Part shown: one piece after another, positions 1,705 to 38,293 of the stretch
How the letters are laid out: every line of letters starts with the position of its first letter
Numbering within the stretch: the stretch's first letter is position 1
DNA from: Minisyncoccota bacterium
GTDB lineage: Bacteria; Patescibacteriota; Minisyncoccia; Phycocordibacterales; PALSA-1337
Assembly: GCA_041671485.1 (NCBI GenBank)
Contig: JBAZBL010000002.1
Span: forward strand, 9,320 to 73,319
Length of the DNA: 64,000 nt
Reading direction: 5' to 3'
Notes under the pieces: model-generated
Database searches by the model: none
Told to the model about the DNA's origin: nothing
What the model saw: only the letters and a program-made list of their open reading frames with translations
Translations under genes and position numbers: made by a program

Positions 1705-2940
1705 GTGCAGATAAACTATCCCAGAGAAAGACACGGACTACCACCGGAACATGAAGTGCGAGATATCATTTTGGTCTTATGCCACGAGTGTGGTTGGAAC
1801 CATGATAATGTCAGACTTCAATACATTGGTGGTGATCGACGCAAATATTTCCCCAAACAGGGAATCAAACTTATGCGTGGTTGCCAGTTTACTGTGCAAT
1901 TATATGTAGGTTGCGACAACGAAACGGTTGAGACTCACTTCCAGCTTATAAACGGAAACGGACGAGCGCGTCCGGGTCATGAGCTTTACCAAGAAATGAT
2001 CGGAATCTTCAGCGGCCGAATGATGATCGTCACCGACGAAATGATCCGTGAATTGCGCACTGGCATCAGTGGAAACGTTGTTCGCAGTCAACAACCTGAA
2101 CAACCGACGGTTGTCGTATCTGACGACACTGTATCTGATGGTAGTGTGGACCAAAATGAAATCGTTGACGATGCTTCGTCCACAACTCCAGCACCAAAGT
2201 CATCAGAGCCATCACCGGAGCCACAAGCTCCATTAGCTGATCCGGTACATTACAAAAAGTACTTTGATGATCCCTCCAAACTGCATTTAGGTGTCTGTGC
2301 TCTCGTCGCCATGTGCGACGAAGATACACAAAAACCGTTCAGTTTCGGAGACTTCGAAAAAGTCATCGCCGAATTGGATGTCCCCACGGGTAACATATCG
2401 CCGATGGTGTTCATCAGAGTCTTCACGACAAGAGGATTTGTAATTCGGCTCAACCCGGAAAGCAAACCTTCTCGTTATGCGATCACCGCAGCCGCAGTAG
2501 ACTTTGCGCTCGGTCCGATACCGAATTCTTTGATAAAAACCAAAATGCAAATCGAAGCGGAAGCTAACCGAAAACGAACACCTTCCGCCAAACCGAAAGC
2601 AGACATCCCAAAAACAGACATCAAGCAATCATTGCTTGAACTGAGAGCCAAGGCGGATGAACACAAAGTCCTCGAGGGTAAGTTGACTGCCGTTAAAAAT
2701 CGGTTGGCCAAATTGCAGGAAGTGGACATTACTGCCGAGGAAAAAAACGCCAAGGCAGAAATCACTTCGCACCAAAAGCGAATCGATGACCTCCGTGTGT
2801 TTCTCGATGACCTCGAGAAACGGAAAGGGGAAATACAAGCTACAGAAAAGGAAAGCGAGCACCTGAACAAGGCACTTAGTGATCCTCATCTTCTGCAAGC
2901 ACTCAGTCAACTCGAAGAATTCAAGAAACTGCTGTCCTAA
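1705..2940 (+). CDS. Hypothetical protein with an N-terminal Cys-rich region (CHECGW...C...C) and a C-terminal coiled coil
   Basis: 411-aa ORF with GTG start 6 nt after an AGGAG SD. The C-terminal about 120 aa are K/E/L-rich heptad-like. A rho-independent terminator follows. Higher GC than the genome background. Confidence 0.5.
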   Translation: MQINYPRERHGLPPEHEVRDIILVLCHECGWNHDNVRLQYIGGDRRKYFPKQGIKLMRGCQFTVQLYVGCDNETVETHFQLINGNGRARPGHELYQEMIGIFSGRMMIVTDEMIRELRTGISGNVVRSQQPEQPTVVVSDDTVSDGSVDQNEIVDDASSTTPAPKSSEPSPEPQAPLADPVHYKKYFDDPSKLHLGVCALVAMCDEDTQKPFSFGDFEKVIAELDVPTGNISPMVFIRVFTTRGFVIRLNPESKPSRYAITAAAVDFALGPIPNSLIKTKMQIEAEANRKRTPSAKPKADIPKTDIKQSLLELRAKADEHKVLEGKLTAVKNRLAKLQEVDITAEEKNAKAEITSHQKRIDDLRVFLDDLEKRKGEIQATEKESEHLNKALSDPHLLQALSQLEEFKKLLS

Positions 2941-2966
2941 GTCTTGAATTTGCTGAAAAGAATCAC

Positions 2967-2992
2967 AGGCGCACAAAAGTGCGCCTTTTTTA
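2967..2992 (+). terminator. Rho-independent terminator
   Basis: aggcgcac-aaaa-gtgcgcct stem-loop followed by TTTTTT. Confidence 0.6.
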
Positions 2993-3037
2993 TATTTTTT
3001 CAAAATAATTAAAGATTTTAAGCATAAAAAAGTAGTC

Positions 3038-3066
3038 TTGACATTAAATCAAATATATGTAATATA
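3038..3066 (+). promoter_or_regulatory. Candidate promoter (TTGACA, about 17-nt spacer, TGtAATATA extended -10)
   Basis: TTGACA at 3038-3043 and a TG-extended AT-rich -10 at about 3058-3066. It lies about 45 nt upstream of the ATG at 3114. Confidence 0.35.
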
Positions 3067-3113
3067 TATACAAGATCTTCCACACAACAACAATTGACCA
3101 TTGACAATATGAA

Positions 3114-3782
3114 ATGAAGACCGCAAAAACAATGAAAACTAAGGATTGCATGGCGGATTTCTTTAGGCGTTTCGGTAAATCCGAAGCCCTGATTGAGTTC
3201 GCGGAGGTACAATCCGACACTGAAAGAATGTGGCGCAAACACGGCATTATGCCGACAGGAGAAGTTCTTCTTCGGGTGTGTTATTTTCTGGATCTGATCG
3301 GATACAAAGTTGAAGAGCTTATGCGGGTCCACCCTGACATATTCACGGTTGGACAATGTATAGCTTTCAACCTGATGACTCCACGTATCGTGGAGAGAGC
3401 CATCGGTACGACCGACCGAAAAGCCCTATATCGATATTTTCGAGAAGGCATCGGAGTAACCAGAGAGCGTCTGAATGAATTCAAACTCATTGCAGATTCT
3501 CGTCGGTCTCAACTGACCGAAATGGTAAAACAGAAGCGTCTCGGTTTGAAACAGTTGCTCGGTAATTCACCAAGCCACAGTAACAAACCAGACGATTCAT
3601 TGATAGGCGAATTTGCTGCAGCTTGTTCGAGCGTAAGAACACTAGGAGGGAAACTCTTGGAGGGTCCTGTTGAAAATCGAATACGGATGCGGCAAAAAAT
3701 GGTTGAAGGGCCAGAACCGGCTCTTCATCTGACTTGGGAAACACTGAACAACCTGTTAAGCGAAAAGAAAGGAATCATATGA
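3114..3782 (+). CDS. Hypothetical protein (222 aa), middle gene of the three-gene cassette
   Basis: ORF with no recognisable motifs. Its stop TGA overlaps the downstream ATG (ATGA), indicating translational coupling. Confidence 0.45.
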   Translation: MKTAKTMKTKDCMADFFRRFGKSEALIEFAEVQSDTERMWRKHGIMPTGEVLLRVCYFLDLIGYKVEELMRVHPDIFTVGQCIAFNLMTPRIVERAIGTTDRKALYRYFREGIGVTRERLNEFKLIADSRRSQLTEMVKQKRLGLKQLLGNSPSHSNKPDDSLIGEFAAACSSVRTLGGKLLEGPVENRIRMRQKMVEGPEPALHLTWETLNNLLSEKKGII

Positions 3783-5416
3783 ATGCAATTAATGTTGCAC
3801 TACATCAGGGTAAAGTCATGTATAGGTTGGCGAAAAACTATGCCGATCTATCAGCAGTAATCAAGGAGGTCGTGCAGAATTCTGTCGACTCTTGTGCCAA
3901 ACGAATCGCTATTCAAATAAGTGTGCCACAGCGCACCTTTACTGTGTATGACAATGGTTCGGGGGCTAGCCGTGAGAAAATCACGCAAGCCCTTCAATCC
4001 ATTGGTAATACCCTTAAGGATGTTGGCAAGTATGGGCAGTTTGGACTCGGTCTGATCTCTCCTATTTCCATTGCCCGAGAATTCACCCTGACTTCGTGTC
4101 CGGCACCACGCCGAAGCGATTTCATGGAGTATCGATTCGTAACCGCGACCATCATCAAGCAAAAGCAGGTCTCAATTCCCAGTAGTCCTGTGAGTGGTCT
4201 CGAACACGATCCCAATGGAAAAACTTGGTGGCGCACGAAAGTTAATGTGGGCGGAATCACTAAAGACCGTCGCACCTCGCATCTAGACCCCGCTGAACTG
4301 ACAAGCGATATCGCACTCAAGTTTGGCGATGCCATCAGGGAAAGGCAAATTGACATTACCATCGACATTACCAATGACGATGGACACCAGTCAATCCTCA
4401 AGGTTGAGGCCCCCCAATTCTCCGGAAGAAAGATTGATGTCTTTAAGGAGGAAATGCCCGAGAGCGGCAAGGTAAAGGTTGAGCTCTACATTGCTCCTTT
4501 GGGACGTCGCGGTCGTCAAGGAAAAGTCGTCTTTGGCACAATGAACAACCCATCGCGCCTTTCACCGAAGCAATTCGTTGATTGCACCGTGACATTGCTC
4601 GATCAGCCGGTCGCTAAAGCACTCCTCTCTGGGGTTTTTGAGGGTCAAGTGCTCTGTGAGAAGGTTGCTCTACATGCTGACCGTACCAAATTCGAGGAGA
4701 ACGACGCACTCTTTGTGCTTTGTGAAGTTCTTGGGTTCTGGCATAAGAAGGTCGGTAAGAAAATCATTATTGAGGTGGAAGAACAGGCCTCCGACGATCG
4801 ATTCCAACGAATCGGTGTACAAGTGATGCCATATGCCGAGCTCCTGCTAAAACAGGTGGAGTTCGAATCAGTGGCGAGATTGATCACAGTCGGGTCTGTT
4901 GGTCCTGAACATGTCAAAGTTTCTCGAAAACAGATCATTGGTCAGGATGATGGCACTTCAGTATCAATTGGGGGTAAACCTTTTGAAGAAAAGGAAATAT
5001 GCAAAGGAGGATCTGGCAGTGGTGGTAAAACAATCCCAAAGATAGACCATCCACTTCATAAACCAGGACTCGTCTACGGCCCTCGCGGTCGCAAACGGAC
5101 TGATGTCAGAAGCAGTTCTACAGGTCTCCGGTTTGAACACGTCGAGATGGAAGACTTCAGGGTTCCTTTCGTCTTTGAACCACGGACCGGCATGTTGTCA
5201 TTCAACATCAACAATCCCAACTGGGGATTGTGCCAAGAAAATGACACTTTCCTGTCGGACTATCACATGGCGGTAATCAATACCGCCCTGTCTGCTGAAT
5301 TGTTCAGAGATACGGGTGGAATGATTCACCCCGAAGTGACCAAGTTTGCTCACGAGAATCTGTCTCATCAGGTCTTTGCTATCAGGAACGGCAAAGCCAT
5401 CCAAGTGAAGCACTAA
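3779..5416 (+). CDS. GHKL (Bergerat-fold, HATPase_c/MORC-MutL-Hsp90-like) ATPase with a large uncharacterised C-terminal region
   Basis: N-box E-VVQNSVDS, G1 box DNGSG, G2 box GQFGLGL within the first ~110 aa. A GAAAGGAA SD precedes the ATG at 3779. An alternative in-frame start at 3734 overlaps the upstream gene. Confidence 0.6.
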   Translation: MNAINVALHQGKVMYRLAKNYADLSAVIKEVVQNSVDSCAKRIAIQISVPQRTFTVYDNGSGASREKITQALQSIGNTLKDVGKYGQFGLGLISPISIAREFTLTSCPAPRRSDFMEYRFVTATIIKQKQVSIPSSPVSGLEHDPNGKTWWRTKVNVGGITKDRRTSHLDPAELTSDIALKFGDAIRERQIDITIDITNDDGHQSILKVEAPQFSGRKIDVFKEEMPESGKVKVELYIAPLGRRGRQGKVVFGTMNNPSRLSPKQFVDCTVTLLDQPVAKALLSGVFEGQVLCEKVALHADRTKFEENDALFVLCEVLGFWHKKVGKKIIIEVEEQASDDRFQRIGVQVMPYAELLLKQVEFESVARLITVGSVGPEHVKVSRKQIIGQDDGTSVSIGGKPFEEKEICKGGSGSGGKTIPKIDHPLHKPGLVYGPRGRKRTDVRSSSTGLRFEHVEMEDFRVPFVFEPRTGMLSFNINNPNWGLCQENDTFLSDYHMAVINTALSAELFRDTGGMIHPEVTKFAHENLSHQVFAIRNGKAIQVKH

Positions 5417-5436
5417 AGAACAAATTATGTGTACAC

Positions 5437-5471
5437 ATCACCACGGACATCATGTCTGTGGTGATTTTTTA
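5437..5471 (+). terminator. Rho-independent terminator
   Basis: atcaccacgga...tctgtggtgat stem followed by TTTTTTATT. Confidence 0.55.
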
Positions 5472-5611
5472 TTAAAATATATCTTAACTTCTATATTTCT
5501 TTGCTATTCATTTCGTCGCTGAGTAAAGTTACCTAGCGTGGCGTACTGTGTGGTTTGGTGCGGAGCGATTGATCGTAAGGTCAGTCGCTTTTTATATACA
5601 CCAAAGATTTT

Positions 5612-6259
5612 ATGATACAATTCTCGAACATGATTTATATTTTTCTTGATGAAAGTGGAGATTTGGGATTTGGTGAGCGTTCTACTCGCTGGTTTGTGAT
5701 TGCTACTATTATAACTACAAATTTCAGACCAATAGAGAAAGCTGTGACAAAGATATGGTGTTCGATGTCAAAAAAATATCAGAAACACGGAGAACTTCAC
5801 GCCAATTTTCATAATAGTTCAATACGAAGAAGATTTGTAAAAGCTATATCTAAAATAGAAAATTTAAATATAGCTTATGTGGTAGTAAATAAGCGAAATA
5901 CACCACATAACATAAAATATGAACATGAAAATCTGTATACATATGCGACCTATGTTTTATTGGAGAAGATTCAGTCACTTGGAATAATTACTCATGACAA
6001 TCAAGTGACACTTTGTGCGGATAAAAGATCCACAAATAAGATATTGAACAAGCATTTTACAGAATATATCACTAAATTGACAGAAAAGAATAGAGATGAG
6101 CCAATAAAGGTTGAGTTAATCAATTCGAGTAATAGCAAATCATTACAAGCAGTAGATTTTGTGTCATGGGCAATCTTTAGGAAATACGAAAGAAATGATC
6201 ACGAATTGTATGATTTGATAAGAGAACAGATCTGTAGTGAACAGATTTTATATCAATAA
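5612..6259 (+). CDS. DUF3800 family protein
   Basis: N-terminal IYIFLDESGDLGF motif typical of DUF3800. Very low GC compared with both flanks. Confidence 0.6.
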   Translation: MIQFSNMIYIFLDESGDLGFGERSTRWFVIATIITTNFRPIEKAVTKIWCSMSKKYQKHGELHANFHNSSIRRRFVKAISKIENLNIAYVVVNKRNTPHNIKYEHENLYTYATYVLLEKIQSLGIITHDNQVTLCADKRSTNKILNKHFTEYITKLTEKNRDEPIKVELINSSNSKSLQAVDFVSWAIFRKYERNDHELYDLIREQICSEQILYQ

Positions 6260-6363
6260 TAAATAAGAAAGCCCCTCCACTTTAACGAAGCACCAAGTGC
6301 ATCAACATGGAAGGGTCTTACTCCTTAATGAGAATAATAACAAACAAAAAAATAAATACAATA

Positions 6364-6392
6364 TTGACAATACTTATTAGCTGTGATAGTGT
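6364..6392 (+). promoter_or_regulatory. Candidate promoter (TTGACA-17-TAGTGT)
   Basis: TTGACA at 6364-6369 with a weak -10. Sits just upstream of the ORF starting at 6407. Confidence 0.25.
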
Positions 6393-6406
6393 GATATTGG
6401 ATTAGC

Positions 6407-7072
6407 ATGTTGCTAAAACCCGATCTAAATAACAGATCGTTTGACAACTTTCAACTCATGAGAACATTGACTTTACGTATTCTTGGTACAACACCGTTAA
6501 TTTTACATCGCATTTCCAGGCATGAATTGCGTGAACAGATTGCCTCGGATGCCAGTAAGGGCATACTGTTCGAACAAGAAGCCTTGGAAAATATGAGCAA
6601 AGACGACGACGGTAACCCTGTCGTTCCCGTCTCTTGGCTCTGGGACGCAATCCGCAAAGGTTGCTCCAAGATAACTGTTGACGGAGGCAGTCAATTGAGC
6701 TTCGTCAGATTACAGCAAGTACTTCATCTGCCTAGTGGATCTATTCCGCTCCGCAAAAGGAATCAACATCTGGATAGGGAATGGGAGGTATACACTAGTG
6801 TCCAACATGCTTCACCGGGATCAAAGAAAATGATTACCGTGGTTGCTCCAATGTTTCGGCACTGGATGCTTGAGGGATCAGTGGCCGTTGATGGAAATCA
6901 ATACGATGATTACCTACTTCAGAGAGTTTTCAATGAAGCGGGCAAAGTCGGTATGGGTCTCTTCCATCCACCCAAGAAGCAGTTTGGGAAGTTCACGACT
7001 TTTGTTACGCCAAGCGACGTGCGCCTCTCCCAAGTCAAGTTAGGTGCCGTCCGGTCTAGTCTGGAGCGTTGA
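6407..7072 (+). CDS. Hypothetical protein (221 aa)
   Basis: ORF in a higher-GC segment. No family recognised. Confidence 0.4.
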   Translation: MLLKPDLNNRSFDNFQLMRTLTLRILGTTPLILHRISRHELREQIASDASKGILFEQEALENMSKDDDGNPVVPVSWLWDAIRKGCSKITVDGGSQLSFVRLQQVLHLPSGSIPLRKRNQHLDREWEVYTSVQHASPGSKKMITVVAPMFRHWMLEGSVAVDGNQYDDYLLQRVFNEAGKVGMGLFHPPKKQFGKFTTFVTPSDVRLSQVKLGAVRSSLER

Positions 7073-10681: not shown

Positions 10682-11818
10682 ATGATTACGATAAAAGACT
10701 TGTCACTACAGAAGATAACATCTTTTCCAATGATGCCAGGAACAGCGTTTGAAGCTATAGATGATATTCTATGGTATGCAACTTCTATGAAAGCATCAGA
10801 TATCCATATAGATCCACGCATTTCTGACATACTAATAAGATTGCGAATAGATGGTCATATAGAAGAAGTAGGAATTTGGGAAAAAAGATTGCATGAAGAA
10901 ATTATTGCCAGATTGAAGATATTGGCTTGTGTAAGGACAGATCTTCATGCAGTACCACAAGACGGTAGATGGAAAGCATCAATTCGAAATGAAGAATTCA
11001 ATATACGAGTTTCATTTATGCTCACTTATCATGGTGAAAATGCTGTTATACGTCTACTACCAGCACGAGTGCCAAAACATATTTCTTTTTCCAAATTGGG
11101 ATTTACACCAGACCATGTAAGGATGATAGACCATGCTCTGAAGCGACCAAATGGCCTCATCCTTGCTACTGGTCCAACAGGTTGTGGCAAAACCACCACT
11201 CTCCATACTTGTCTATCATTCAAGGCCAGAGAACCACTATCTATCATCACTCTCGAAGATCCAGTCGAATATGAGATAGATGGTGTGAGACAAGTACATA
11301 TCAAACACAATCTAGGCATCACTTTTCCTATAGGACTTCGTGCTGCATTACGCCAAGATCCAGATGTCATCATGGTTGGAGAGATAAGAGACAATGAAAC
11401 TGCTAGAGTTGCAATCCATACAGCTCTCACTGGACATTTGGTATTTTCTACGCTTCATACAAATTCCGCACTCGAATCCATATTGCGTTTGGTTGATATG
11501 AATGTCGATAACTATCTTCTCGCTTCTACTTTGCGATTGGTCATTTCACAAAGATTGGTCAGAAATATCTGTCATGAATGTTCGCTAGCAGGATGTAGCA
11601 GTTGTAGAGGAACTGGATATGTAGGTAGATCTGTCATAGCCGAAGTGTGTGAGATTGATTCAGGATTGTCTCAATTGATTGCAAATAAAGAAGCACCGTC
11701 TGTGATTCGAGACTATGTGATATCAAAAGGATTTAGACCAATAAGTGAAGATGGAGCCGAAAAAGTCGAATGGGGAGTAACTACAAAAGAAGAGATTCTG
11801 CGCGTCTTGGCCGAATAA
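10682..11818 (+). CDS. pilB: Type IV pilus / type II secretion assembly ATPase (PilB/GspE family)
   Basis: Walker A GPTGCGKTTT, Asp box ITLEDPVEY, VGEIRD, His box TLHTN, and the tetracysteine motif CHEC...CSSC. Confidence 0.85.
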   Translation: MITIKDLSLQKITSFPMMPGTAFEAIDDILWYATSMKASDIHIDPRISDILIRLRIDGHIEEVGIWEKRLHEEIIARLKILACVRTDLHAVPQDGRWKASIRNEEFNIRVSFMLTYHGENAVIRLLPARVPKHISFSKLGFTPDHVRMIDHALKRPNGLILATGPTGCGKTTTLHTCLSFKAREPLSIITLEDPVEYEIDGVRQVHIKHNLGITFPIGLRAALRQDPDVIMVGEIRDNETARVAIHTALTGHLVFSTLHTNSALESILRLVDMNVDNYLLASTLRLVISQRLVRNICHECSLAGCSSCRGTGYVGRSVIAEVCEIDSGLSQLIANKEAPSVIRDYVISKGFRPISEDGAEKVEWGVTTKEEILRVLAE

Positions 11819-11840
11819 TAAGATCAAACTGAATATCAAT

Positions 11841-12902
11841 GTGATAAAAAATATATTTCAAAAAAGAAAATGGAAAAGGCGCGAACTTATTTTATTTCTA
11901 GAAAGACTAGAATTGTATATTTCTTCTGGTTTACCACTCGACATGTGTCTCCAAATCTCAAGTGATGGTGTTACAAAGAGACAAAAGAAAATAGTTCTTG
12001 ATATTAGGTCTGCAGTTCTCTTGGGAAGTCAATTATCGAAAGCAATGGTTGTAAATATGAATTTATCAAATACAATTGCTGGTCTTATAAGGCACGGTGA
12101 GACTTCTGGTCAACTAGGAAAAGCGCTTGTTTATGCAAAAGAACTCTTGGAAAGGGAAGAAGATCTAATAAAAAAATGTATCTCTGCACTTATTTATCCT
12201 ACTGTGATAGGAATATTTGCAATAATCCTCACATTTGCACTTGTGAAAGGCGTTATGCCACAGATCATCCCTATGCTTCGTAGTCTGAATGTACAATTGC
12301 TACTCATTACTAGAATTATTATGTTCATATCAGAGAATCTAATGAAATATAGTATTCATTTGATAGTCTTTGGTATTTTATCGACAGTAGGCCTTTTGAT
12401 TTTATATAAAAAGGTTGAGACTTTTCGGAATAAATGTCAGTCTTTTATTTCAAGATTGCCTATTATAGGTCGTTTGATAAATCTGTATTATATATCTCTA
12501 TTTACCCAATCACTCGGTTCACTCATAGAATCTGGTACATCACTTACGATTGCTTATTCAAATACAGTCTCTTCTTTGTCTTTTGCTCCAATAAAGCTTT
12601 TATGTAAAAAACAAGAAGATAATGTAAAAAATGGTTATTCACTAGGTTTAGTTTTTGCAAAAATTCATAGATTGCCACCATATATTGCACCACTTATATC
12701 TGCAGGCGAAATGGCTGGTACTCTCGGTAATTCTCTCATCCGCACAGCAAAGATTGCTGATAGTGATCTAGAATACTCTCTCAAGAAGATTACCTCTCTC
12801 ATAGAGCCAGTAATGATGGCTGGTATGGGACTTGTAGTTGGAGCGATCGCACTTTCTATAGTTTTACCAATATATGATGTATCAAAAGTTCTACAACAGT
12901 GA
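11841..12902 (+). CDS. pilC: Type IV pilus platform protein (PilC/GspF family)
   Basis: 353-aa polytopic membrane protein with GspF-like repeats. Immediately downstream of pilB. Confidence 0.75.
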   Translation: MIKNIFQKRKWKRRELILFLERLELYISSGLPLDMCLQISSDGVTKRQKKIVLDIRSAVLLGSQLSKAMVVNMNLSNTIAGLIRHGETSGQLGKALVYAKELLEREEDLIKKCISALIYPTVIGIFAIILTFALVKGVMPQIIPMLRSLNVQLLLITRIIMFISENLMKYSIHLIVFGILSTVGLLILYKKVETFRNKCQSFISRLPIIGRLINLYYISLFTQSLGSLIESGTSLTIAYSNTVSSLSFAPIKLLCKKQEDNVKNGYSLGLVFAKIHRLPPYIAPLISAGEMAGTLGNSLIRTAKIADSDLEYSLKKITSLIEPVMMAGMGLVVGAIALSIVLPIYDVSKVLQQ

Positions 12903-14287
12903 TTACAAATATTTCCAAAAACAAAGGAATATTACTCATTGATATTATGATTGCTCTTTCTTTGTCACTTCTATTTATTGTTGCAATTACCGAATCGTCT
13001 CTTATTGGTCGAAAAGTTTTTGATGGAGCAAAAAATAGGAATGATCTATTGGATGCATTCTCAGGAATTGTTTCAACTACGACTATTGATATAGTTAGTT
13101 TTTCAAGACCTTTTGGTAATGATCGAATAGAGATCATTACAAAGATAAAGAGTTTCTATGATGAGGTTACATTTCATGAAGTAATTTCATCAAATTCTAC
13201 TATCAATGCGAGTACACCTATTTGTTCTCCATTTTTTGCAAATAAAAATGTTATTGGTAATTATCAATATATAAAAGAATTTGATTCGAATAATATTGCT
13301 GACGTAGATTCAATTGAAATAAAACAAATAACATTACCAATAGATCCACTCTTACTACTCACAGATATTGAAGTTAGGAATAATATAGCATATGTCTCAA
13401 CAGATTCTGCTAGAGCATCTGATCCTGATATATTGATATTTGATATCCATGAAGTACAAAATCCAATACTTCTTTCATCTGTAAACACTGGTCCTGGAAT
13501 AGCTTCGGTATCTATCTTTGGTAATAAAATATATGGATCGGCAAGTAGTCGCATTGGACAATTACACATTATCAAATTGAATAGTCCAAATGATATATCT
13601 CTTATCAATAAATTTCGTTTGCCTCTACCATATGCAACAGCAACGGCACCACTTGGTAGTTCTGTATTCTACGATAATAATTTTGTATATCTTGGCACAG
13701 ATAAATGGGATGGCAGTGAATTGTCTATTATAGATATTGACGATCCGATGAATCCAGAAGTAGTTGGCAATTTTGAAACTGGAAGTAAGATAAATGATAT
13801 ATTTGTCCACAATAATATTGCTTATATTGTTGCTTCAGATCAGAATCAACTCCGTACTATTCACGTATTCGATCATTCAAATCCTTTATTAATAAGTTCA
13901 TTTTCTCCTACAGGTTGGCAGAGGCAAGAAGGTAAAAGTATTTCTATATTTGAAGATGGTTTGTCACTCGGACGTACTCCTGGTGGTTTCAATATTATTC
14001 AGGATCATGAAATATTCCATTGGGCTAGCACTTCAAATGGAGTACTAAATAATATGACTTCAAAAGATATTTCTGGTGGTGTATATGGCATTGTTCTCGA
14101 TAAAAACAATATTTATTTTATTACTAGAACAATTGATAAAGAGTTGATAATAGGAAACAATGATCTATCTTCTCTAGAATATAAATATTATTCACTACCT
14201 ATAGCTCCAAAAACTATTACATGTGATAGTGATCGACTTTACATTCTCGCCAATTCGGCGCCAATCATATATGAAATCACTTTCTAA
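12899..14287 (+). CDS. Pilin-like N-terminus fused to an LVIVD-type beta-propeller repeat domain (candidate minor pilin / tip adhesin)
   Basis: N-terminal KNKG/ILLIDIMIALSL resembles a prepilin cleavage site followed by a hydrophobic helix. At least four repeats of the form NIAYV..D....I.D...P..v follow. Start overlaps the pilC stop. Confidence 0.5.
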   Translation: MITNISKNKGILLIDIMIALSLSLLFIVAITESSLIGRKVFDGAKNRNDLLDAFSGIVSTTTIDIVSFSRPFGNDRIEIITKIKSFYDEVTFHEVISSNSTINASTPICSPFFANKNVIGNYQYIKEFDSNNIADVDSIEIKQITLPIDPLLLLTDIEVRNNIAYVSTDSARASDPDILIFDIHEVQNPILLSSVNTGPGIASVSIFGNKIYGSASSRIGQLHIIKLNSPNDISLINKFRLPLPYATATAPLGSSVFYDNNFVYLGTDKWDGSELSIIDIDDPMNPEVVGNFETGSKINDIFVHNNIAYIVASDQNQLRTIHVFDHSNPLLISSFSPTGWQRQEGKSISIFEDGLSLGRTPGGFNIIQDHEIFHWASTSNGVLNNMTSKDISGGVYGIVLDKNNIYFITRTIDKELIIGNNDLSSLEYKYYSLPIAPKTITCDSDRLYILANSAPIIYEITF

Positions 14288-14459
14288 ATACATAAAGACT
14301 CATTCATATTGCCAAAATAAAGGCATGACACTTATTGAAGTCATATTATATTCAATGCTTCTGTCTATGTTATTGGCCGGATTTATAAAATATGTCTATG
14401 ATATTCATTCAAATGAAATCAAACTCGATCTTGATATCAAAGATGCGCAGTTCAGATAA
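14271..14459 (+). CDS. Type IV prepilin-like small protein (leader ending KG / MTLIEV)
   Basis: Classic G/MTLIE prepilin peptidase site followed by a hydrophobic helix. An alternative longer ORF starts at 14223. Confidence 0.5.
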   Translation: MKSLSKYIKTHSYCQNKGMTLIEVILYSMLLSMLLAGFIKYVYDIHSNEIKLDLDIKDAQFR

Positions 14460-14462
14460 AAT

Positions 14463-14816
14463 ATGAAAGAGAATCCAAATAAATACAGTCAAGGTTTTAT
14501 AGCACTTATTGCTGTTATTCTACTTGCATTTGGGACAACTGCATTTTCTCTCGCAACACTTTCATCTGCTTTCTCTTATGCTGATACTGTAGCAAAAATG
14601 GAAATTCGTATTCAGGCACGTCTCAATCTGAACGCCTGTTTGGATACTTTGACCCTCATGATTTCTAGAGACTATTTCCTGAATGGTAATGTGACAATCC
14701 GAGAATTTGCCTGCGAAGCAAAAATATCAAATGATTTTGTAAATCCAATCCTACTAGAAGTGAAAACGATGCTGAATGAGGTTTCTGTTTATGATAGTCG
14801 TATTATTTACAGATAA
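14463..14816 (+). CDS. Pseudopilin-like protein (QG/FIALIAVILLAF N-terminus)
   Basis: Pilin-like N-terminal hydrophobic segment. Located within the pilus cluster. Confidence 0.45.
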   Translation: MKENPNKYSQGFIALIAVILLAFGTTAFSLATLSSAFSYADTVAKMEIRIQARLNLNACLDTLTLMISRDYFLNGNVTIREFACEAKISNDFVNPILLEVKTMLNEVSVYDSRIIYR

Positions 14817-14879: not shown

Positions 14880-15212
14880 ATGAATGAAAAAAATCAATGC
14901 ACATGGTTTATTGACCCCATGGGTGATACCCATGTGAATCGGGTACTTGCGGGTAACTCGGATCCAGAAGATGAATGCTTTGGCCAGCTCTGTTCTGATG
15001 GATTGAAACGAAATCTATGGCGTTGTAGTCATGACCTGATCACACGCCTCAACAGAGCAGCAACAGAGAACAAAATGCATTTTCGGATCTATCGGAAACG
15101 TGGTAACAATGGTGAGATCGAACCGTGGAGATTTGAGACACTTCCACATCCAGTGGTGCCGAGAAGGAATGAATCAATCTTCACACTGATTCTTACCAGC
15201 CAACCAATATGA
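14880..15212 (+). CDS. Hypothetical protein (110 aa)
   Basis: ORF with higher GC, followed by a terminator. No family recognised. Confidence 0.3.
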   Translation: MNEKNQCTWFIDPMGDTHVNRVLAGNSDPEDECFGQLCSDGLKRNLWRCSHDLITRLNRAATENKMHFRIYRKRGNNGEIEPWRFETLPHPVVPRRNESIFTLILTSQPI

Positions 15213-15284: not shown

Positions 15285-15503
15285 TTATTTTTCAGAAAAC
15301 TTATTACGAGATATTTTCGATTGTTTCACAATTGCGAGAAATGTCCCTATTGGAATCACTTTGTTACTACCATGACAAGGAACTGGTACAGATACTCCGG
15401 TTTCTTCATTATAAAAAATATGGTGACTGCCTTTCTGACGAGATAGAACGAATCCATTCATTTCAAGAATGGTGATAATTCGCTTAGCAGTTAGCGGTCG
15501 CAT
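15285..15503 (-). CDS. hicA: HicA-family mRNA interferase toxin
   Basis: LTAKRIITILEMNGFVLSRQKGSHHIF...PIGTFLAIVKQ matches the HicA signature (KGSHH). Start taken at an internal Met of the 87-aa ORF. Confidence 0.6.
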   Translation of the reverse strand: MRPLTAKRIITILEMNGFVLSRQKGSHHIFYNEETGVSVPVPCHGSNKVIPIGTFLAIVKQSKISRNKFSEK

Positions 15504-15771
15504 ATGAAGTTTTTGTCCGGCGGGGTATAGGAGATAAATTTCTCCCAATTACATATTCAATAGACACAGACATTATTTTTTGTCCGTGTTCCGTAAGTTC
15601 TTCAATCCATAACTGAAGAACCTCCTTGGCTTTTCTTTTTGCCTCTGCGAAAGTTCTGCCGAAAGTGACGCAACCTGGAAAGTCAGGAAAAGAGACTTCG
15701 TAACAACCTTTTTTATACGGTTTGAAAATGGCATTATAAGTCATAGTTGTTTTTGGTCCAATTAATTTCAT
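15484..15771 (-). CDS. hicB: HicB-family antitoxin (N-terminal UPF0150-like domain)
   Basis: YEVSFPDFPGCVTFGRTFAEAKRKAKEVLQLWIEEL is typical of HicB. Overlaps the hicA start by about 20 nt. Confidence 0.5.
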   Translation of the reverse strand: MKLIGPKTTMTYNAIFKPYKKGCYEVSFPDFPGCVTFGRTFAEAKRKAKEVLQLWIEELTEHGQKIMSVSIEYVIGRNLSPIPRRTKTSYATANC

Positions 15772-23447: not shown

Positions 23448-24347
23448 ATGATTACTCTCTCAAACGGCCATGCTTTCAAATACATGGTCGCTAGTGGTGC
23501 TCTAGCATTTGATGGCAAAGGCTGGTTTTGGGAACGACCACTGGTGTGGCTTGGTCTTATCAAGCCCGAACTTTTCACTGTCGTCATAAAATCTCTAACA
23601 CGTAACCCGCGTGCCGGAAATCTACGCTGGTGGAAACCATGGAATTGTGTTCGTCTGATTCCTGGTGGTTCGGTCAACAAAGTTGGTCTTACCAATCCTG
23701 GAATCGAATGGTGGTGCCGAGGAGTCGGTCCCAAACTCGATTTTAAGAAGTTCCCTACAGCCGGATCAATTTTCGGTGATGAAAAGGAACTGGTGGAAAT
23801 GGCGGAGATGCTCAATCGCTTCAGTCTCGTCGCGCTTGAAGTCAATGTCTCATGCCCGAATACCGGCCATGCAATCGAGCAGGCAGAGATGGTGGTAAAC
23901 AGCATGAAGGCGGTCAAACATGTTTCGTGTCATCCTGTCATCGTCAAAGTCTCGGCTGATCAAGACTATCTGATCATTGCACGCGAACTTGTTGGAGTCG
24001 CAGAAGCGGTCTCTCTCAACAGCGTGCCGTGGAAAACAGTCTTCACCAATGGCGAGCAAACGCCTTTGGCTAAGCTCGAGAAACAAGTCGGTGGTGGAGG
24101 CGGAGGCGTCTCTGGCAAACCAGCACAGAAACACAACTGGGCGGCAGTCGAGAGCTTATCCAAACAAGGATCGCTCCCCATGATCGGTCCAAGCGTCATG
24201 GAATTCGAAGACATGAAAAAGCTCAGGAGACTCGGCGCAAAAGCAATCAGCTTCGGTGCGATTCATCTTCCAACAAAAGGGAAACCATGGACCCTATTTA
24301 CAAATCCATGCAAGCCAACATTGTTCATCGAAAAGGAAAACATGTGA
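23448..24347 (+). CDS. pyrD: Dihydroorotate dehydrogenase (class 1-like)
   Basis: ASGAL.FDG.G N-terminus, NPGIE, EVNVSCPNT active-site region. About 300 aa. GC much higher than the genome. Confidence 0.7.
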   Translation: MITLSNGHAFKYMVASGALAFDGKGWFWERPLVWLGLIKPELFTVVIKSLTRNPRAGNLRWWKPWNCVRLIPGGSVNKVGLTNPGIEWWCRGVGPKLDFKKFPTAGSIFGDEKELVEMAEMLNRFSLVALEVNVSCPNTGHAIEQAEMVVNSMKAVKHVSCHPVIVKVSADQDYLIIARELVGVAEAVSLNSVPWKTVFTNGEQTPLAKLEKQVGGGGGGVSGKPAQKHNWAAVESLSKQGSLPMIGPSVMEFEDMKKLRRLGAKAISFGAIHLPTKGKPWTLFTNPCKPTLFIEKENM

Positions 24348-25426
24348 AAGAAAACTCTGTAACTATCCCTCGATGGTTTGACCGCCATCTCCATATTCGC
24401 GATGGCGACATGCTCAAAATCGTTCTTCCGTTCACGCTCAAACAGCGTGCGACAGGAGCTATCATCATGCCTAACCTTACTGATCCGATCTCGGATATCG
24501 AAAAGGCGAGGGCCTATCGCAATCGGATAGAACACTTCCTTAGAAGGATTCTACCGTTAGGTTGTGGCTTCATTCCGTGCATGACGCTGTATTTGACGGA
24601 TCACACTGATCCTGAAGAAGTTGTGCGCGGATTCGAAGAAGGTGTTTGGAGGGCGGTGAAGCTCTACATGGCCAATCAAAAAGGCCAAGGCGGAACTACC
24701 GGTTCTGCGCACGGCGTGAAGAATCTTTTCGGTCGCTATCCGGTGTTCAAGGCAATGGAGAAACACAAAATCCCGTTGCTCGGACACTTCGAAGCAGTCG
24801 AAGAAGATGTTGACGAATTCGATCGAGAGATCGTCTCCGTCGAGCGTGACCTCATGCCCATCCTCAAGTCCTTCCCAGGACTGCCGGTGGTCTTCGAGCA
24901 TATCACGGACGGACGCGCGGCCGACTTCGTCGCAGAAGTCGATCACGACATCCATGCGACCGTGACTGCCCATCATCTGATGATCAATCGCAATGCCATG
25001 TTCTGGGGCGGTATGAATCCTGGCCACTACTGCAAGCCTGTGCCGAAGCGCGAAACGCATCGTGCAAAGGTCCGGCAGTATGTGACTTCGGGTAATCGTC
25101 GCTTCGGGGCGGGAACTGATTCCGCTCCTCACGATGAAAGTGTTAAGTCTCGTTGCTATGGTTGCGCGGCTGGCATCTTCACTGCTCTATCGGCCGTCGA
25201 GCTCTACACGATGACCTTCGACGAAGACGATGCACTCGAACATCTCGGTCCATTCCTTTCCGAAAACTTCCTCGACATCTATGGTATGGAAGTGAGTTCG
25301 AATACGATGACGATCGAACGGCAAGGTTGGCATCTTCCGGAAAGTGTTTCGAGTCAGCTTATCGGCACACCGACCGTCAAAGTTTTCAAAGGAGGTGCAG
25401 ATCTTCCGTGGAAACTCGTTGGTTGA
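24308..25426 (+). CDS. pyrC: Dihydroorotase, E. coli PyrC-type (class II)
   Basis: Near-colinear similarity to E. coli PyrC (DRHLHIRDGDMLK, IIMPNL, LYLTD, VVFEHIT, GTDSAPH, CAAG). Confidence 0.85.
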   Translation: MQANIVHRKGKHVKENSVTIPRWFDRHLHIRDGDMLKIVLPFTLKQRATGAIIMPNLTDPISDIEKARAYRNRIEHFLRRILPLGCGFIPCMTLYLTDHTDPEEVVRGFEEGVWRAVKLYMANQKGQGGTTGSAHGVKNLFGRYPVFKAMEKHKIPLLGHFEAVEEDVDEFDREIVSVERDLMPILKSFPGLPVVFEHITDGRAADFVAEVDHDIHATVTAHHLMINRNAMFWGGMNPGHYCKPVPKRETHRAKVRQYVTSGNRRFGAGTDSAPHDESVKSRCYGCAAGIFTALSAVELYTMTFDEDDALEHLGPFLSENFLDIYGMEVSSNTMTIERQGWHLPESVSSQLIGTPTVKVFKGGADLPWKLVG

Positions 25427-25449
25427 AATCAAAAACAAGAACCTTAACC

Positions 25450-25485
25450 CAGCCCTGACATTAATTTGTCAGGGCTGATTTTTTG
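25450..25485 (+). terminator. Rho-independent terminator
   Basis: cagccctgaca-ttaatt-tgtcagggctg followed by TTTTTT. Confidence 0.6.
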
Positions 25486-25518
25486 TGTGCTTTACATTTT
25501 AATAAAATTATAGTAATG

Positions 25519-25598
25519 TTCCGCTTAGAGTCGACTTAATCGACAAAGGCTAAAGTGCTGCCTTAAAGCATACAACTGAACATTGAAAGGAAAATACC
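25519..25598 (+). promoter_or_regulatory. Conserved leader, copy 2 (upstream of putative pyrE)
   Basis: See 23351-23447. Confidence 0.45.
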
Positions 25599-26315
25599 AT
25601 GAAGCCAATCATTCCATTGCCAGGGGAAGATCTCCTGGAACTTGGGAAGCGTTGCAACGCAGTCTATGTCTGTCCGAAAGTCGGCTCTGAACGCAAGGGA
25701 CCTCTGGTCGCCTACGCAGGAAAGGATAAATACGGGAGGAATCTCGTCGGAGACATTTACTTCAACTTCCGGCGGATCGAGGTTCACCCAAAAGTGGTCG
25801 AGGCATTCGCCGAAGCCGCATGCCAGAAACTCCGCGATCAAGGTCTCATCGATGTGTTTGATACTGTCTGCGGAATTCCGCAAGGCGGTCGGACGTTCGG
25901 TCAGATGCTTGCGCTCGTCGCTGGTAAGCGGTTCGCATATGCGGACAAGAAGCCGAAACCGACGGAGGCGGGCAAGAAACAGGAATACACCTGGGACCTC
26001 TCGCAGTTCGATTTCGAGCAAGGCGAACGCGTTGCGGTTGCGGAAGATGTTTTTAACAACTTCCAGAATACCGACAATACTCTCGCAGAAATCGCCGTCA
26101 CTGGTGCGAACATCGTGCTTCTCGTCGGGGCGCTTAACCGCTCTCCGATCTACAGCACGTCCTACAAGGGTCTGCCGGTAATTGCTTCCATTCGTGAAGC
26201 GTATCCGGAATTCGAACAGGATGATCCTGCGGTTGCGAACGATATCGCTGCCGGCAAGCTCGAACTCGAAGTGAAAAAGAACTGGGCACGTCTCTGCGCA
26301 GCAATGCAACAGTAA
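25599..26315 (+). CDS. pyrE: Type I phosphoribosyltransferase, probable orotate phosphoribosyltransferase
   Basis: PRTase-fold motifs (VCGIPQGGRTFG; VAVAEDVFNNFQNT matching the PRPP-binding acidic patch). Sits between pyrC and pyrF. Product assignment rests on context. Confidence 0.45.
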   Translation: MKPIIPLPGEDLLELGKRCNAVYVCPKVGSERKGPLVAYAGKDKYGRNLVGDIYFNFRRIEVHPKVVEAFAEAACQKLRDQGLIDVFDTVCGIPQGGRTFGQMLALVAGKRFAYADKKPKPTEAGKKQEYTWDLSQFDFEQGERVAVAEDVFNNFQNTDNTLAEIAVTGANIVLLVGALNRSPIYSTSYKGLPVIASIREAYPEFEQDDPAVANDIAAGKLELEVKKNWARLCAAMQQ

Positions 26316-26345
26316 CTCTCAAACAAAACGAAAGGAAAACAGAAC

Positions 26346-27086
26346 ATGCAAAAGACACTGACACCGGAGGAACGATTGATCGTTGCCGCCGACTTCAAGC
26401 CAACGGCTCCCAACGGAAAGGACTGGGTGAAAGCCCGAGTTCTCGCACTGGCCGACAGCCTCAAAGGGACCGGAGTCTACCTCAAGGTGAACTCCGCCCT
26501 TCGAGCTTGCGGCTACAATCTGATCGGCGAAATCCAGTCGCGCGGTTTGCGGGTCTTCGCGGACCTCAAACTCTTCGACATCAGCGAGACTCTGTCCACA
26601 GACGGCGTCTTGCTGAAGGAAGCGAAACCGGAACTGCTCACCACTGTCTGCGTCGCGGGAGTTACCGCAATGCAGGCTTTGAAAGCCGAACTGCCCGACA
26701 CGGAAGTGCTCGGTGTGACGGTTCTTACGAGCCTCAAGGATGCCGATACGCAAGCGATGTTCACCTGCTCAACTGAGGAAGCCGTCATGCGGTTCGCCCA
26801 AGTCGCGGCAGATGCGAAGATCGATGGACTCATCTCGTCTCCCAAAGAGGCGGAAGTGCTCCGTGCGAAATTCGGCATCGTCTTGTCGCTCAACACACCG
26901 GCTATTCGGCCGACGTGGGCGATCGTTCCTGGCGATGATCAGAATCCCGAGCGGATCATGACTCCCGCAAAGGCCATCAAGGCCGGTGCGGATCGTATCG
27001 TGGTCGGACGTCCGATCGTGAAGGCCGAAAAGCCCTACGACGCGGTCATGCGGACCATCGAGGAAATCGCTTCGGCTATGGTGTAG
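26346..27086 (+). CDS. pyrF: Orotidine-5'-phosphate decarboxylase
   Basis: LIVAAD, DLKLFDI, and IVVGRPI motifs. Confidence 0.8.
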   Translation: MQKTLTPEERLIVAADFKPTAPNGKDWVKARVLALADSLKGTGVYLKVNSALRACGYNLIGEIQSRGLRVFADLKLFDISETLSTDGVLLKEAKPELLTTVCVAGVTAMQALKAELPDTEVLGVTVLTSLKDADTQAMFTCSTEEAVMRFAQVAADAKIDGLISSPKEAEVLRAKFGIVLSLNTPAIRPTWAIVPGDDQNPERIMTPAKAIKAGADRIVVGRPIVKAEKPYDAVMRTIEEIASAMV

Positions 27087-37304: not shown

Positions 37305-37766
37305 ATGACAAATCAATTTCAAAATCCAAAGTATCTAATTATTATTGTTCTTTTGGTCATGGTATTGACTCCGATGCTAGTCAATGCAGCCAATCCTATA
37401 ACAGATGTATTCAATAGTAATTTCAAACTTTCTGTTTGCGATGGCCCTGCCAAGAATCCAAATGCAAATGCAACGAACTATCCCAATGGTTATGTAGCAT
37501 GCGACTTCAATGGTCTCATGTTACAAGCACAGCATCTTATTAATGTTTTTATAATATTTGGTGTTTTGGCGGCGATAGTAAGTTTTAGTTATGCTGGGTA
37601 TCTATATATTACTGGTGTAGAGAAAAATATAAGTCATGCAAGAGAGATCTTCCGTAAAACTGGCATAGGTCTTATAATGATGTTGACTGCATGGTTTGTT
37701 GTTTATCAGATACTGGACTGGCTAGTCGCAGATCCGGGGGTAAAGACACTTTTGGGGACACCATAA
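37305..37766 (+). CDS. Small secreted 2-TM protein, paralog 1 (VirB2/TrbC-pilin-like topology)
   Basis: Signal peptide plus two hydrophobic helices. First of six tandem paralogs. Confidence 0.5.
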   Translation: MTNQFQNPKYLIIIVLLVMVLTPMLVNAANPITDVFNSNFKLSVCDGPAKNPNANATNYPNGYVACDFNGLMLQAQHLINVFIIFGVLAAIVSFSYAGYLYITGVEKNISHAREIFRKTGIGLIMMLTAWFVVYQILDWLVADPGVKTLLGTP

Positions 37767-37783
37767 TTGTTGAATAAATATAT

Positions 37784-38272: not shown

Positions 38273-38293
38273 AATATTTATAAATAAAATAAT

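Follow-up and report, generated by a model that had tools for sequence, protein, structure and literature searches.

A five-gene type-4 filament operon of Paceibacteria encodes a modular pilin with a predicted seven-bladed beta-propeller

Introduction

Which filament do five adjacent genes of a Paceibacteria genome (Patescibacteria/CPR) specify, and what might this filament bind? Patescibacteria are abundant, mostly uncultured and thought to live attached to other microbes. The genes occupy positions 10682-14816 (+ strand) of a 64-kb stretch of DNA, subsequently designated the window, and one of them encodes a 462-aa protein in which a first-pass annotation had noticed a prepilin-like N-terminus and a beta-propeller. 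Here we address the nature of the filament machinery, the architecture of the 462-aa protein and of its two small companions, and the readings that these features allow.

Results

Five genes form a single pilus operon that is conserved among Patescibacteria

The locus is a single, self-contained five-gene operon for a minimal type-4 filament (T4F), and its products are an extension ATPase, a platform protein and three proteins of the pilin type (Table 1). ORF positions and Pfam matches confirmed the initial reading of five ORFs on one strand, in which pilB/pilC-type genes precede the gene for the 462-aa protein, and independent gene tables agreed with this order. The platform gene shares 4 nt with the gene of the 462-aa protein. 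The order of all five genes is kept in 57 of 84 related Patescibacteria loci from different species, and most of the loci in which the full order was not seen are cut by contig ends.

Table 1. Features of the operon (positions within the window).
Feature	Position	Strand	Length	Evidence
Extension ATPase, type-4-filament superfamily (GspE/PilB/ComGA type)	10682..11818	+	378 aa	Pfam T2SSE, E 1.5e-101
Platform protein (GspF/PilC/ComGB family), polytopic membrane protein	11841..12902	+	353 aa	Pfam T2SSF, E 1.3e-33
Modular minor pilin	12899..14287	+	462 aa	AlphaFold2 model, N-terminal signal, LVIVD-type propeller
Very short prepilin	14271..14459 (ORF from 14223)	+	62 aa from probable start ATG 14271 (ORF 78 aa)	N_methyl, E 3.4e-4, 20.5 bits (cut-off 21.2)
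Small pilin-shaped protein without Glu5	14463..14816	+	117 aa	AlphaFold2 model; no Pfam family

The ATPase is short (roughly 360-378 aa) and carries the Walker A motif GPTGCGKTT as well as a cysteine cluster (CHEC...CSSC). In the gene calls of other assemblies its start lies 16 codons later, which yields a protein of 362 aa. The original label "pilB" holds in that the protein is an extension ATPase of the GspE/PilB type, but it has to be narrowed to a protein that comprises the N2 and C-terminal domains only. Its closest counterparts in the PDB are GspE, PilB and PilF (about 1e-76 to 1e-73), with PilT following at 1e-35. When compared with NCBIfam models, the ATPase reached 385.8 bits for GspE, 355 bits for PilB and 234.9 bits for ComGA, all of them below the equivalog cut-offs (630, 675 and 300 bits, respectively). 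The platform protein, which matches T2SSF in two stretches, likewise stayed below every cut-off with 190.6 bits for GspF (cut-off 424), 157 bits for PilC and 132.6 bits for ComGB (cut-off 240). On these scores the machinery was assigned neither to type IVa pili, whose PilT, PilM, PilN and PilO were also absent among the scanned window proteins, nor to the Com pilus (T4dP), whose ComGC-GG models matched none of the pilins, nor to the type II secretion system.

The best NCBIfam scores being those for GspE and GspF, one could think of a pseudopilus that exports proteins by pushing, as in type II secretion, and JGI indeed names one homologue pseudopilin PulG. We consider this highly improbable. 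Both scores remain far under their cut-offs, and neither a secretin nor GspC, L or M is encoded in the cassette according to any of the gene tables. Moreover, Patescibacteria to our knowledge have no outer membrane, and we know of no precedent in type II secretion for a 35-kDa propeller on a pseudopilin.

The 462-aa protein is organized as a modular pilin

At its N-terminus the 462-aa protein has the sequence KNKG/ILLIDIMIALSL, with the leader ending at Gly10, and this segment has the composition of a class-III-like signal (KNKG/ILLIDIMIALSLSLLFIVAI), i.e. a short basic leader and Gly at position -1 followed by a hydrophobic stretch of about 20 residues. All family members whose N-terminus is covered share Gly(-1), and R, K or S predominate at position -2. 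The residue at +5 is always acidic: of 77 distinct family sequences, 63 have Asp and the other 14 Glu. The window protein has Asp and thus lacks the Glu5 of type 4 pilins. No match to PF07963 or TIGR02532 was obtained for this protein at E <= 1, and no member of its homologue set (A1) matched the pilin N-methylation models at E <= 0.01. A profile alignment with the canonical neighbouring pilin placed G(-1) on G(-1) and D5 on E5, albeit weakly (probability 25%).

The AlphaFold2 model (pLDDT 87) predicts an alpha1 helix of 46 residues (9-54) packed on a small sheet of three strands (64-97), which corresponds to the lollipop topology of pilins. This pilin module (residues ~10-100) is connected by a linker (~100-139; pLDDT 62-75) to a propeller (140-462), and Cys109 and Cys442 are invariant in the family. 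By definition, modular pilins combine an N-terminal pilin module, a linker and a domain whose occurrence is not limited to pilus biology (Raynaud et al. 2021, PMC8179133), and the 462-aa protein displays all three. Its classification as a modular pilin, with a seven-bladed LVIVD-type beta-propeller mounted on a short pilin module, is well supported.

If the N-terminus were an ordinary uncleaved signal anchor, the gene would encode a membrane-tethered surface propeller located beside pilus genes rather than a filament subunit. The missing match to pilin HMMs, Asp instead of Glu at +5 in the window protein and a motif search that revealed no prepilin peptidase nearby are in line with such an anchor. 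However, we know of no signal anchors that conserve a Gly at -1 and an acidic residue at +5 as this family does, let alone Glu as in 14 of its sequences. The long helix packed on a small sheet is pilin-like, and the gene is translationally coupled between platform and prepilin genes, a place it retains in the 57 loci with conserved order. A mere anchor is accordingly very unlikely; invariant Gly(-1), the consistently acidic +5 position and the helix-on-sheet fold sustain the earlier proposal of a prepilin-like N-terminus with D at +5.

The propeller has one nearly invariant face

In the AlphaFold2 model the propeller of 35 kDa is closed and consists of seven blades with four-stranded repeat units. 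The window protein itself scored below the cut-off of the Pfam LVIVD model (PF08309/IPR013211; E 0.18, 11.6 versus 20.2 bits). LVIVD matches at E <= 0.01 were found in 38 of 48 homologues (41-88% identity), the best of them at 1.6e-13. Fold and homologues support the LVIVD-type beta-propeller that had been postulated from repeats in the sequence. The family profile also matches giant multi-repeat proteins with 12-37 matched stretches each, presumably LVIVD repeats as well. The protein does not belong to the PilY1/PilC adhesin family (IPR008707), whose members are not pilins and resemble the C-terminal propeller of PilY1 in sequence or closely in structure.

Conservation is unevenly distributed. 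Mean column conservation is 0.67 in the propeller versus 0.48 in the pilin module, and 42 of the 44 loop residues with at least 90% conservation lie on one face of the propeller. This face is acidic and aromatic (D169, D175, D177, E274, E344, E371, W270 and W340). Its near-invariance suggests a conserved ligand; a constant ligand or binding partner would account for it more readily than a host-specific receptor under rapid evolution, and for an adhesin recognizing diverse hosts such conservation is unexpected.

The higher conservation of the propeller and the clustering of nearly all invariant polar and aromatic residues on one face could also be expected from an enzyme, hydrolase- or lyase-like, or from a lectin for a conserved glycan, in place of a host-specific adhesin; the tip of the filament would bring it to the wall of a target cell or to a polymer. 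Peptidase modules have indeed been predicted in some modular pilins (PMC8179133). However, no catalytic family was matched by sequence, the structural matches are generic to seven-bladed propellers and no activity is known for LVIVD repeats (PMC10210494). The conserved residues may just as well form the interface to the pilin module or to other minor pilins, and we rate a tip-displayed enzyme or lectin as quite unlikely.

The face also bears on a role of the filament in competence. Patescibacteria rely on extracellular DNA for nucleotides, and a DNA-uptake pilus of the Com/T4dP kind, a short filament, could capture this DNA through its tip complex, possibly involving the propeller. Layout and protein sizes resemble comGA-comGB-pilins, the ATPase aligns with ComGA over the full length of the model (E 7.6e-70) and ComGB is covered by the platform protein (E 2e-38). 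In addition, the cassette is devoid of genes for a retraction ATPase and PilMNO, and peptidase, ATPase, platform and pilins are enough for Com pili (PMC12153270). Nonetheless, GspE and PilB score higher than the Com models, which remain below their cut-offs, ComGC-GG matches are missing among the pilins, and comEA, comEC and dprA were found neither among the scanned window proteins nor in the gene tables of the related loci. DNA binding would call for an electropositive surface, which the acidic and aromatic face does not provide, and the propeller-bearing T4P-2 of the Saccharibacteria strain TM7x made no contribution to competence (PMC11623550). Competence is thus an unlikely function.

Two small companions: a headless pilin and a pilin-shaped protein without Glu5

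The first small protein has the leader MKSLSKYIKTHSYCQNKG and a mature peptide of 44 residues (MTLIEVILYS..., Glu at +5), which leaves room for the alpha1 helix only. Homologues were found in 74 of the 84 loci; their unfused mature length has a median of 44 and ranges from 40 to 51. In many of them the +1 residue is F, L, I or V, and consequently the leader must be translated.

The second protein comprises the leader MKENPNKYSQG and a mature part of 106 aa (FIALIAVILL...) with Ile at +5. Its AlphaFold2 model (pLDDT 90.7) shows a helix (7-69) and a four-stranded sheet forming a pilin-like lollipop. No Pfam family or pilin signature matched the sequence, and a Foldseek comparison of the model with the PDB returned no significant match. 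Homologues are present in 78 of the 84 loci, and G11, A14, R49, C59, F72 and C84, among them two cysteines, are invariant in the alignment. Both small proteins had initially been taken for canonical prepilins. This is nearly true for the first one (G/MTLIEV), which falls just short of the N_methyl cut-off, but not for the second one (QG/FIALI), which has no acidic residue at +5 and, for want of Glu5, falls outside the canonical prepilins. Glu5 is also missing in GspK and in PilA of S. sanguinis, which are tip or nucleating subunits (PMC9934059), and the 117-aa protein is a candidate for the top or nucleating subunit of a tip complex.

Seven loci carry an in-frame fusion of the 44-residue pilin and the 117-aa protein, with the junction precisely at the G/F site of the latter. 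The fusion amounts to two tandem N-in/C-out anchors, and it is hard to reconcile with both parts being ordinary pilins.

A likely major pilin is encoded downstream of the cassette in related genomes

A canonical FTLIE pilin is encoded directly downstream of the cassette at 21 of 68 loci with enough flank and passes TIGR02532 at 31-33 bits. Its identity to the reference copy is 58-74% (10 loci), compared with ~31-50% for the propeller pilin (all loci), and it is likely the major subunit. No major pilin gene was present in the 64-kb window. A search for the GxGDxK motif, a weak test, detected no prepilin peptidase in the window, in the 10 kb upstream of it or within 10 kb of the 84 loci.

Discussion

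We propose that the three minor pilins constitute a tip/priming complex displaying the propeller, which binds an extracellular ligand, and give this reading a probability of about 0.6. A prepilin peptidase encoded elsewhere would cut the three prepilins after the conserved Gly, whereupon the platform may serve for their assembly into a priming complex, the later filament tip. The uppermost position would belong to the 106-aa pilin without Glu5, with the propeller pilin beside it, while the 44-residue helix-only pilin could fill a position in the helical core and, being headless, would not clash with the propeller. Beneath this complex the ATPase would polymerize the major pilin, presumably the strongly conserved FTLIEVLVVIGIIA-type protein of ~145 aa, whose gene lies directly downstream in about a third of the related genomes and would lie elsewhere in the present one. 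The propeller held at the tip could then bind its ligand via the nearly invariant face. By analogy with PilX2 of Nanosynbacter lyticus TM7x, the ligand would most likely be a host-cell surface glycan or a component of the host cell wall. As the first-pass annotation suggested, such a filament might attach the cell to a host in an episymbiotic lifestyle. Three points lead us to infer the tip location: the propeller is bulky, a small pilin without Glu5 accompanies it, and S. sanguinis PilABC and TM7x PilX2 offer an analogy.

A more specific variant, which we consider rather doubtful, is that the operon represents a distinct minimal tip design, composed of a headless 44-residue spacer pilin beside the propeller pilin, a Glu5-less cap and, in some lineages, a tandem precursor with two Gly cleavage sites. 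The conserved face of the propeller might bind a ligand that many hosts share, e.g. a cell-wall glycan, or process it, and the propeller would act as a lectin or enzyme rather than as a host-specific adhesin.

The cassette is widespread and conserved in Paceibacteria, and a 35-kDa propeller with one near-invariant face offers a concrete candidate contact point between these bacteria and a partner. Annotation pipelines miss such pilins: the propeller pilin with Asp5 escapes the signatures, the third pilin has no family and gene calls omit the leader of the 44-residue pilin. That a functional module can be mounted on a pilin and displayed at the tip was established before; what is gained is a new, well-defined example and no new concept.

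Known systems share parts of this design. In type IVa pili, PilY1/PilC places a seven-bladed beta-propeller at the tip via a minor-pilin complex and mediates adhesion, and a tip-presented propeller of seven blades is what the present operon would have in common with it. The Com pilus (T4dP, comGA-GG of monoderms) likewise combines extension ATPase, platform and pilins in one operon and is a minimal filament with a minor-pilin cap and a peptidase encoded elsewhere; in contrast to the present case it has four ordinary minor pilins, no modular pilin and a proven role in DNA capture.

Fusions of pilin and LVIVD modules were known before, and the 462-aa protein is a further member. An InterPro census of modular pilins from 2021 contains 30 proteins with this identical domain combination (IPR012902-IPR013211; Dataset S1 summed), including an 860-residue protein of Ca. 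Falkowbacteria with 12 LVIVD copies. The census proteins have a recognizable N-methyl motif and were only listed, with LVIVD as a "motif of unknown function". The present family would escape the census because it mostly carries Asp5 and its N-methyl motif is missed, and the operon around it had not been described.

S. sanguinis PilABC provides a close parallel in organization: a short pilin module, a short linker and a bulky functional module, and three minor pilins from one operon, one of which lacks Glu5 and is proposed to reside on top. The PilABC complex fits at the tip only, and modular pilins are presented there (PMC8179133, PMC9934059). The differences are that vWA and lectin modules take the place of the propeller, that all three pilins are normal or large with no 44-residue pilin among them, and that the machinery includes PilT, PilM, PilN and PilO.

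A close counterpart of the propeller pilin itself is PilX2 from the thin T4P-2 pilus of Nanosynbacter lyticus TM7x (Saccharibacteria; bioRxiv 2024, PMC11623550). Like the 462-aa protein, it is a minor pilin from Patescibacteria that ends in a seven-bladed beta-propeller and has a non-canonical signal peptide that escapes predictors, and it is encoded together with its own PilB and pilins. PilX2 has been proposed as a tip adhesin, and TM7x depends on it to bind its host efficiently (PMC11623550); by analogy, host adhesion by the propeller pilin of Paceibacteria is plausible.

Structure prediction supports fusion of a pilin module to a seven-bladed propeller

The first-pass annotation had proposed that the 462-aa protein encoded by the third gene of the cassette, a five-gene pilus operon, combines a pilin-like N-terminus with an LVIVD-type β-propeller, and had suggested structure prediction as a check. 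The N-terminus of this protein, subsequently designated propeller pilin, reads MITNISKNKG↓ILLIDIMIALSLSLLFIVAI (the arrow denotes the predicted prepilin cleavage site). A large protein database contained at least 194 full-length homologues with 39-53% identity, besides one copy with 88% identity and one identical copy, and those that are named all derive from Patescibacteria, Paceibacterota, Parcubacteria or Taylorbacteria MAGs. The window as a whole matches a MAG assigned to Candidatus Paceibacterota. Exact-sequence look-ups with the propeller pilin and with a 747-aa ORF near the window end returned no record. In an alignment of 48 homologues (A1), the consensus around the cleavage site is (K/R)G↓xILxDILLALSL. 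Gly(-1) is invariant in a set of 77 distinct sequences from genome loci, in which residue +5 of the mature protein is Asp in 63 cases and the canonical Glu in the remaining 14. Since position +5 is always acidic, canonical Glu included, the N-terminus agrees with what is required of a pilin, unlike a plain signal anchor, which conserves no such position.

Using alignment A1 as input, AlphaFold2 returned a confident model with a pLDDT of 87.4 and a pTM of 0.81. It comprises a pilin-type module made of a 46-residue helix (residues 9-54) and a three-stranded sheet (64-97), a linker modelled with less confidence, and 28 strands (140-461) forming seven four-stranded blades, of which the last is closed by the first strand. 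The LVIVD match of the propeller pilin itself is under the Pfam cut-off (E 0.18), but 38 of the 48 homologues match this family, at best with an E-value of 1.6e-13. When 1.84 billion representative sequences were searched with the family profile, 27,832 proteins scored E <= 0.001. Of the 150 top matches, about 100 share the architecture at a length of roughly 420-530 aa; the others are giant proteins in which the profile hits numerous repeat stretches and which presumably consist of LVIVD repeats. No match was obtained when the family alignment was searched against the PDB. In hhalign, the N-terminal module aligned with the canonical neighbouring pilin with Gly(-1) and +5 in register, but at a low probability of 25%, and with the family of the 117-aa cassette protein at a probability of only 4%. 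Taken together, the LVIVD matches of the homologues, the model and the profile search confirm the initial observation, and a pilin module fused to a propeller is a supported structural interpretation.

One face of the propeller is conserved

When mapped onto the predicted strands, mean conservation is higher in the propeller (0.67) than in the pilin module (0.48). The 44 loop positions with at least 90% conservation are distributed over the B-C (19), D-A (23), A-B (2) and C-D (0) loops. B-C and D-A loops lie on the same face of a propeller. Thus, nearly all conserved loop positions map to one face of the model, which points to a ligand, partner or active site that is conserved. The invariant propeller residues include D169, D175, D177, K269, W270, E274, W340, R342, Q343, E344, D369, E371 and R410; this acidic and aromatic make-up would fit a carbohydrate better than DNA as ligand. 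Two cysteines, C109 in the linker past the pilin module and C442 in the last blade, are likewise invariant across the family and may form a disulfide locking the propeller to the linker. In two related loci (L001 and L004), a thioredoxin/DsbA-like gene precedes the cassette by a few kb.

The two small proteins of the cassette

For the first small ORF, ATG 14271 is the most likely start; the N-terminus then reads MKSLSKYIKTHSYCQNKG↓MTLIEV, with an N_methyl score slightly under the Pfam cut-off. Its predicted mature product has 44 residues, and in 64 distinct homologues the mature length has a median of 44 (range 40-51 if unfused), with the motif G↓(M/F/L/I/V)TLIE. Conservation of both length and motif argues that this tiny pilin is real and scarcely more than an α1 helix. 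In public assemblies it is called from the Met at +1 as a 44-aa protein without leader. Many homologues have F, L, I or V at +1, so the leader must be translated and the annotation conceals the prepilin nature of the gene.

The second small ORF encodes a 117-aa protein (p117; 106 aa mature) with the N-terminal site QG↓FIALIAVILL, whose +5 residue is not acidic, and it matches no Pfam family. Of the two small prepilins initially noted as canonical, only the first therefore comes close, with its just sub-threshold N_methyl score, while the second does not qualify as canonical. Gly(-1), Ala+3, Arg49 and two cysteines are conserved in the p117 family. The p117 model (pLDDT 90.7) shows a 63-residue helix followed by a four-stranded sheet. 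Foldseek detected nothing significant in the PDB (best E 0.34), and the fold was thus judged solely from the predicted topology, which suggests a pilin-like protein.

In seven loci, tiny pilin and p117 form a single in-frame ORF with the junction at the G↓F site of p117 (e.g. EAESG↓FIATTA). This fusion is hard to reconcile with two N-in/C-out anchors, whose tandem arrangement would be an unusual topology. It could encode a precursor that is cleaved twice, or a protein whose second domain stays in the cytoplasm.

The cassette encodes a type-4-filament machinery without subtype assignment

According to the ORF reading of the window, the five genes are arranged head to tail with intergenic gaps of at most 22 nt or overlaps. 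Promoter and terminator scans detected sites no more numerous than in shuffled sequence. The first ORF (378 aa) encodes a T2SSE-family ATPase (Pfam E 1.5e-101), which in a PDB search comes closest to GspE, PilB and PilF, all extension ATPases (~1e-76 to 1e-73), as compared to only 1e-35 for the retraction ATPase PilT; of the domains of the GspE/PilB/PilF enzymes, it contains just N2 and the C-terminal one. The second ORF (353 aa) encodes a T2SSF platform protein (Pfam E 1.3e-33). Both remain under all NCBIfam equivalog cut-offs (GspE/F, PilB/C, ComGA/B), placing them in the type-4-filament superfamily with no named subtype assignable. In membership tests, T2SS, Com pilus, T4aP and PilY1 were rejected, the equivalog scores being sub-threshold for the first three. 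Tad/Flp pili, brought to mind by the 44-residue pilin, were dropped in view of the GspE/PilB-type ATPase, to which the TadA model gives just 43.7 bits. The Flp 'EY' motif likewise appears to be absent.

Conservation was assessed by searching the ORFs of 84 related loci (80 from a one-genome-per-species scan and four from exact look-ups) with the five window proteins. Matches were found for the ATPase in 78, the platform in 82, the propeller pilin in 84, the 44-residue pilin in 74 and p117 in 78 loci. The complete order ATPase-platform-propeller pilin-tiny pilin-p117 is present in 57 loci, and the others are mostly cut-off contigs or contain fused ORFs. Directly after the cassette, 21 of the 68 loci with enough downstream sequence carry a sixth gene, encoding a canonical FTLIEVLVVIGIIA-type (FTLIE) pilin above the TIGR02532 cut-off (mature start G↓FTLIEVLVVIGIIAILAAVVLVAVNPARQ; 141-155 aa mature). 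With 58-74% identity to the reference copy in 10 loci, its conservation clearly exceeds that of the propeller pilin, in keeping with a major subunit. In the 64-kb window, no further prepilin-like N-termini were found beyond the cassette, and the 10-kb upstream extension of the contig contains no pilus genes. For many cassette loci (L005-L084), the third-party (TPA) assemblies give the title 'uncultured Candidatus Saccharibacteria bacterium', which looks like a default name; the specifically named records (Paceibacterota, Parcubacteria, Taylorbacteria or Minisyncoccia) point to Paceibacteria as carriers.

A search for the GxGDxK motif in hydrophobic ORFs, which is a weak test, detected no prepilin peptidase in the window or in any of the 84 loci; for the source genome it spans 74 kb and does not equal genome-wide absence.

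Other features of the window

The four tandem T4SS_pilin genes encode VirB2/TrbC-like pilins, which belong to a type IV secretion or conjugation-like system; VirB4 is not encoded beside them, and the adjoining 828-aa ORF is GyrA. The pyrimidine synthesis genes in the GC-rich island are of foreign composition, notable for Patescibacteria, and may have been acquired horizontally; neither of the two intervening ORFs matches a Pfam family. The higher-GC block near the window start may be a defence or mobile island.

Coordinates of features in the window and in related loci (L numbers)
Feature	Position	Strand	Remark
Cassette	10682-14816	+	five ORFs
Propeller pilin	12899-14287	+	462 aa
Tiny pilin	14271-14459	+	44 residues mature
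p117	14463-14816	+	117 aa
Unrelated ORF	14880-15212	+	110 aa; position taken by FTLIE gene in roughly one in three related genomes
HicA/HicB toxin-antitoxin pair	15285-15771	-	same post-cassette position
Higher-GC block	1705-7072		GC 0.44-0.45; several ORFs without Pfam match
HATPase_c_3 protein	3734-5416		560 aa; in higher-GC block
DUF3800 protein	5612-6259		in higher-GC block
GC-rich island	23448-27086		GC 0.47-0.51; surroundings about 0.36-0.40
Dihydroorotate dehydrogenase	23448-24347		PF01180; in GC-rich island
OMP decarboxylase	26346-27086		in GC-rich island
Four tandem T4SS_pilin genes	37305-39123	+	153, 162, 131, 140 aa; each PF18895, E 2e-4 to 2e-10
715-aa ORF	41618-43765	-	second GC-rich stretch (0.50); nothing in Pfam at E <= 0.001
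Tiny pilin, public call without leader	L085 9863-9997
Tiny pilin, public call without leader	L086 1008-1142
Tiny pilin, public call without leader	L087 3680-3814
Tiny pilin-p117 fusion	L020 7047-7442
Tiny pilin-p117 fusion	L023 11461-11859
Tiny pilin-p117 fusion	L027 11463-11885
Tiny pilin-p117 fusion	L029 11566-11964
Tiny pilin-p117 fusion	L030 3698-4105
Tiny pilin-p117 fusion	L039 11397-11801
Tiny pilin-p117 fusion	L041 11558-12052		leader-like linker kept

Discussion

A minimal type-4 filament consists of peptidase, extension ATPase, platform and pilins (PMC12153270), and three of these four parts are encoded in the cassette. By analogy with PilABC of S. sanguinis (PMC9934059) and with GspK of the T2SS, cited there, the three cassette pilins would constitute a priming and tip complex, in which the Glu5-less 106-aa pilin would be the top subunit and the propeller pilin the effector. 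The head-less 44-residue pilin would occupy a core position in which the 35-kDa propeller leaves no room for an ordinary head.

The concept of modular pilins is well established, and pilin-LVIVD architectures are already contained in a published census (30 proteins when summed from its Dataset S1, IPR012902 plus IPR013211, the latter being the LVIVD repeat; PMC8179133). Beyond this list, our literature search found no link between LVIVD and pilins. Three features appear to be undescribed: the Asp5 variant that pilin signatures fail to capture, the constant set of five or six genes forming the cassette in Paceibacteria, and the minor pilin of 44 residues. By analogy, the propeller pilin is a plausible candidate for an adhesin or host-binding factor: PilX2, a propeller-bearing minor pilin of the Saccharibacterium TM7x whose signal peptide is non-canonical and which carries RCC1 repeats, has been shown to promote host binding (PMC11623550).
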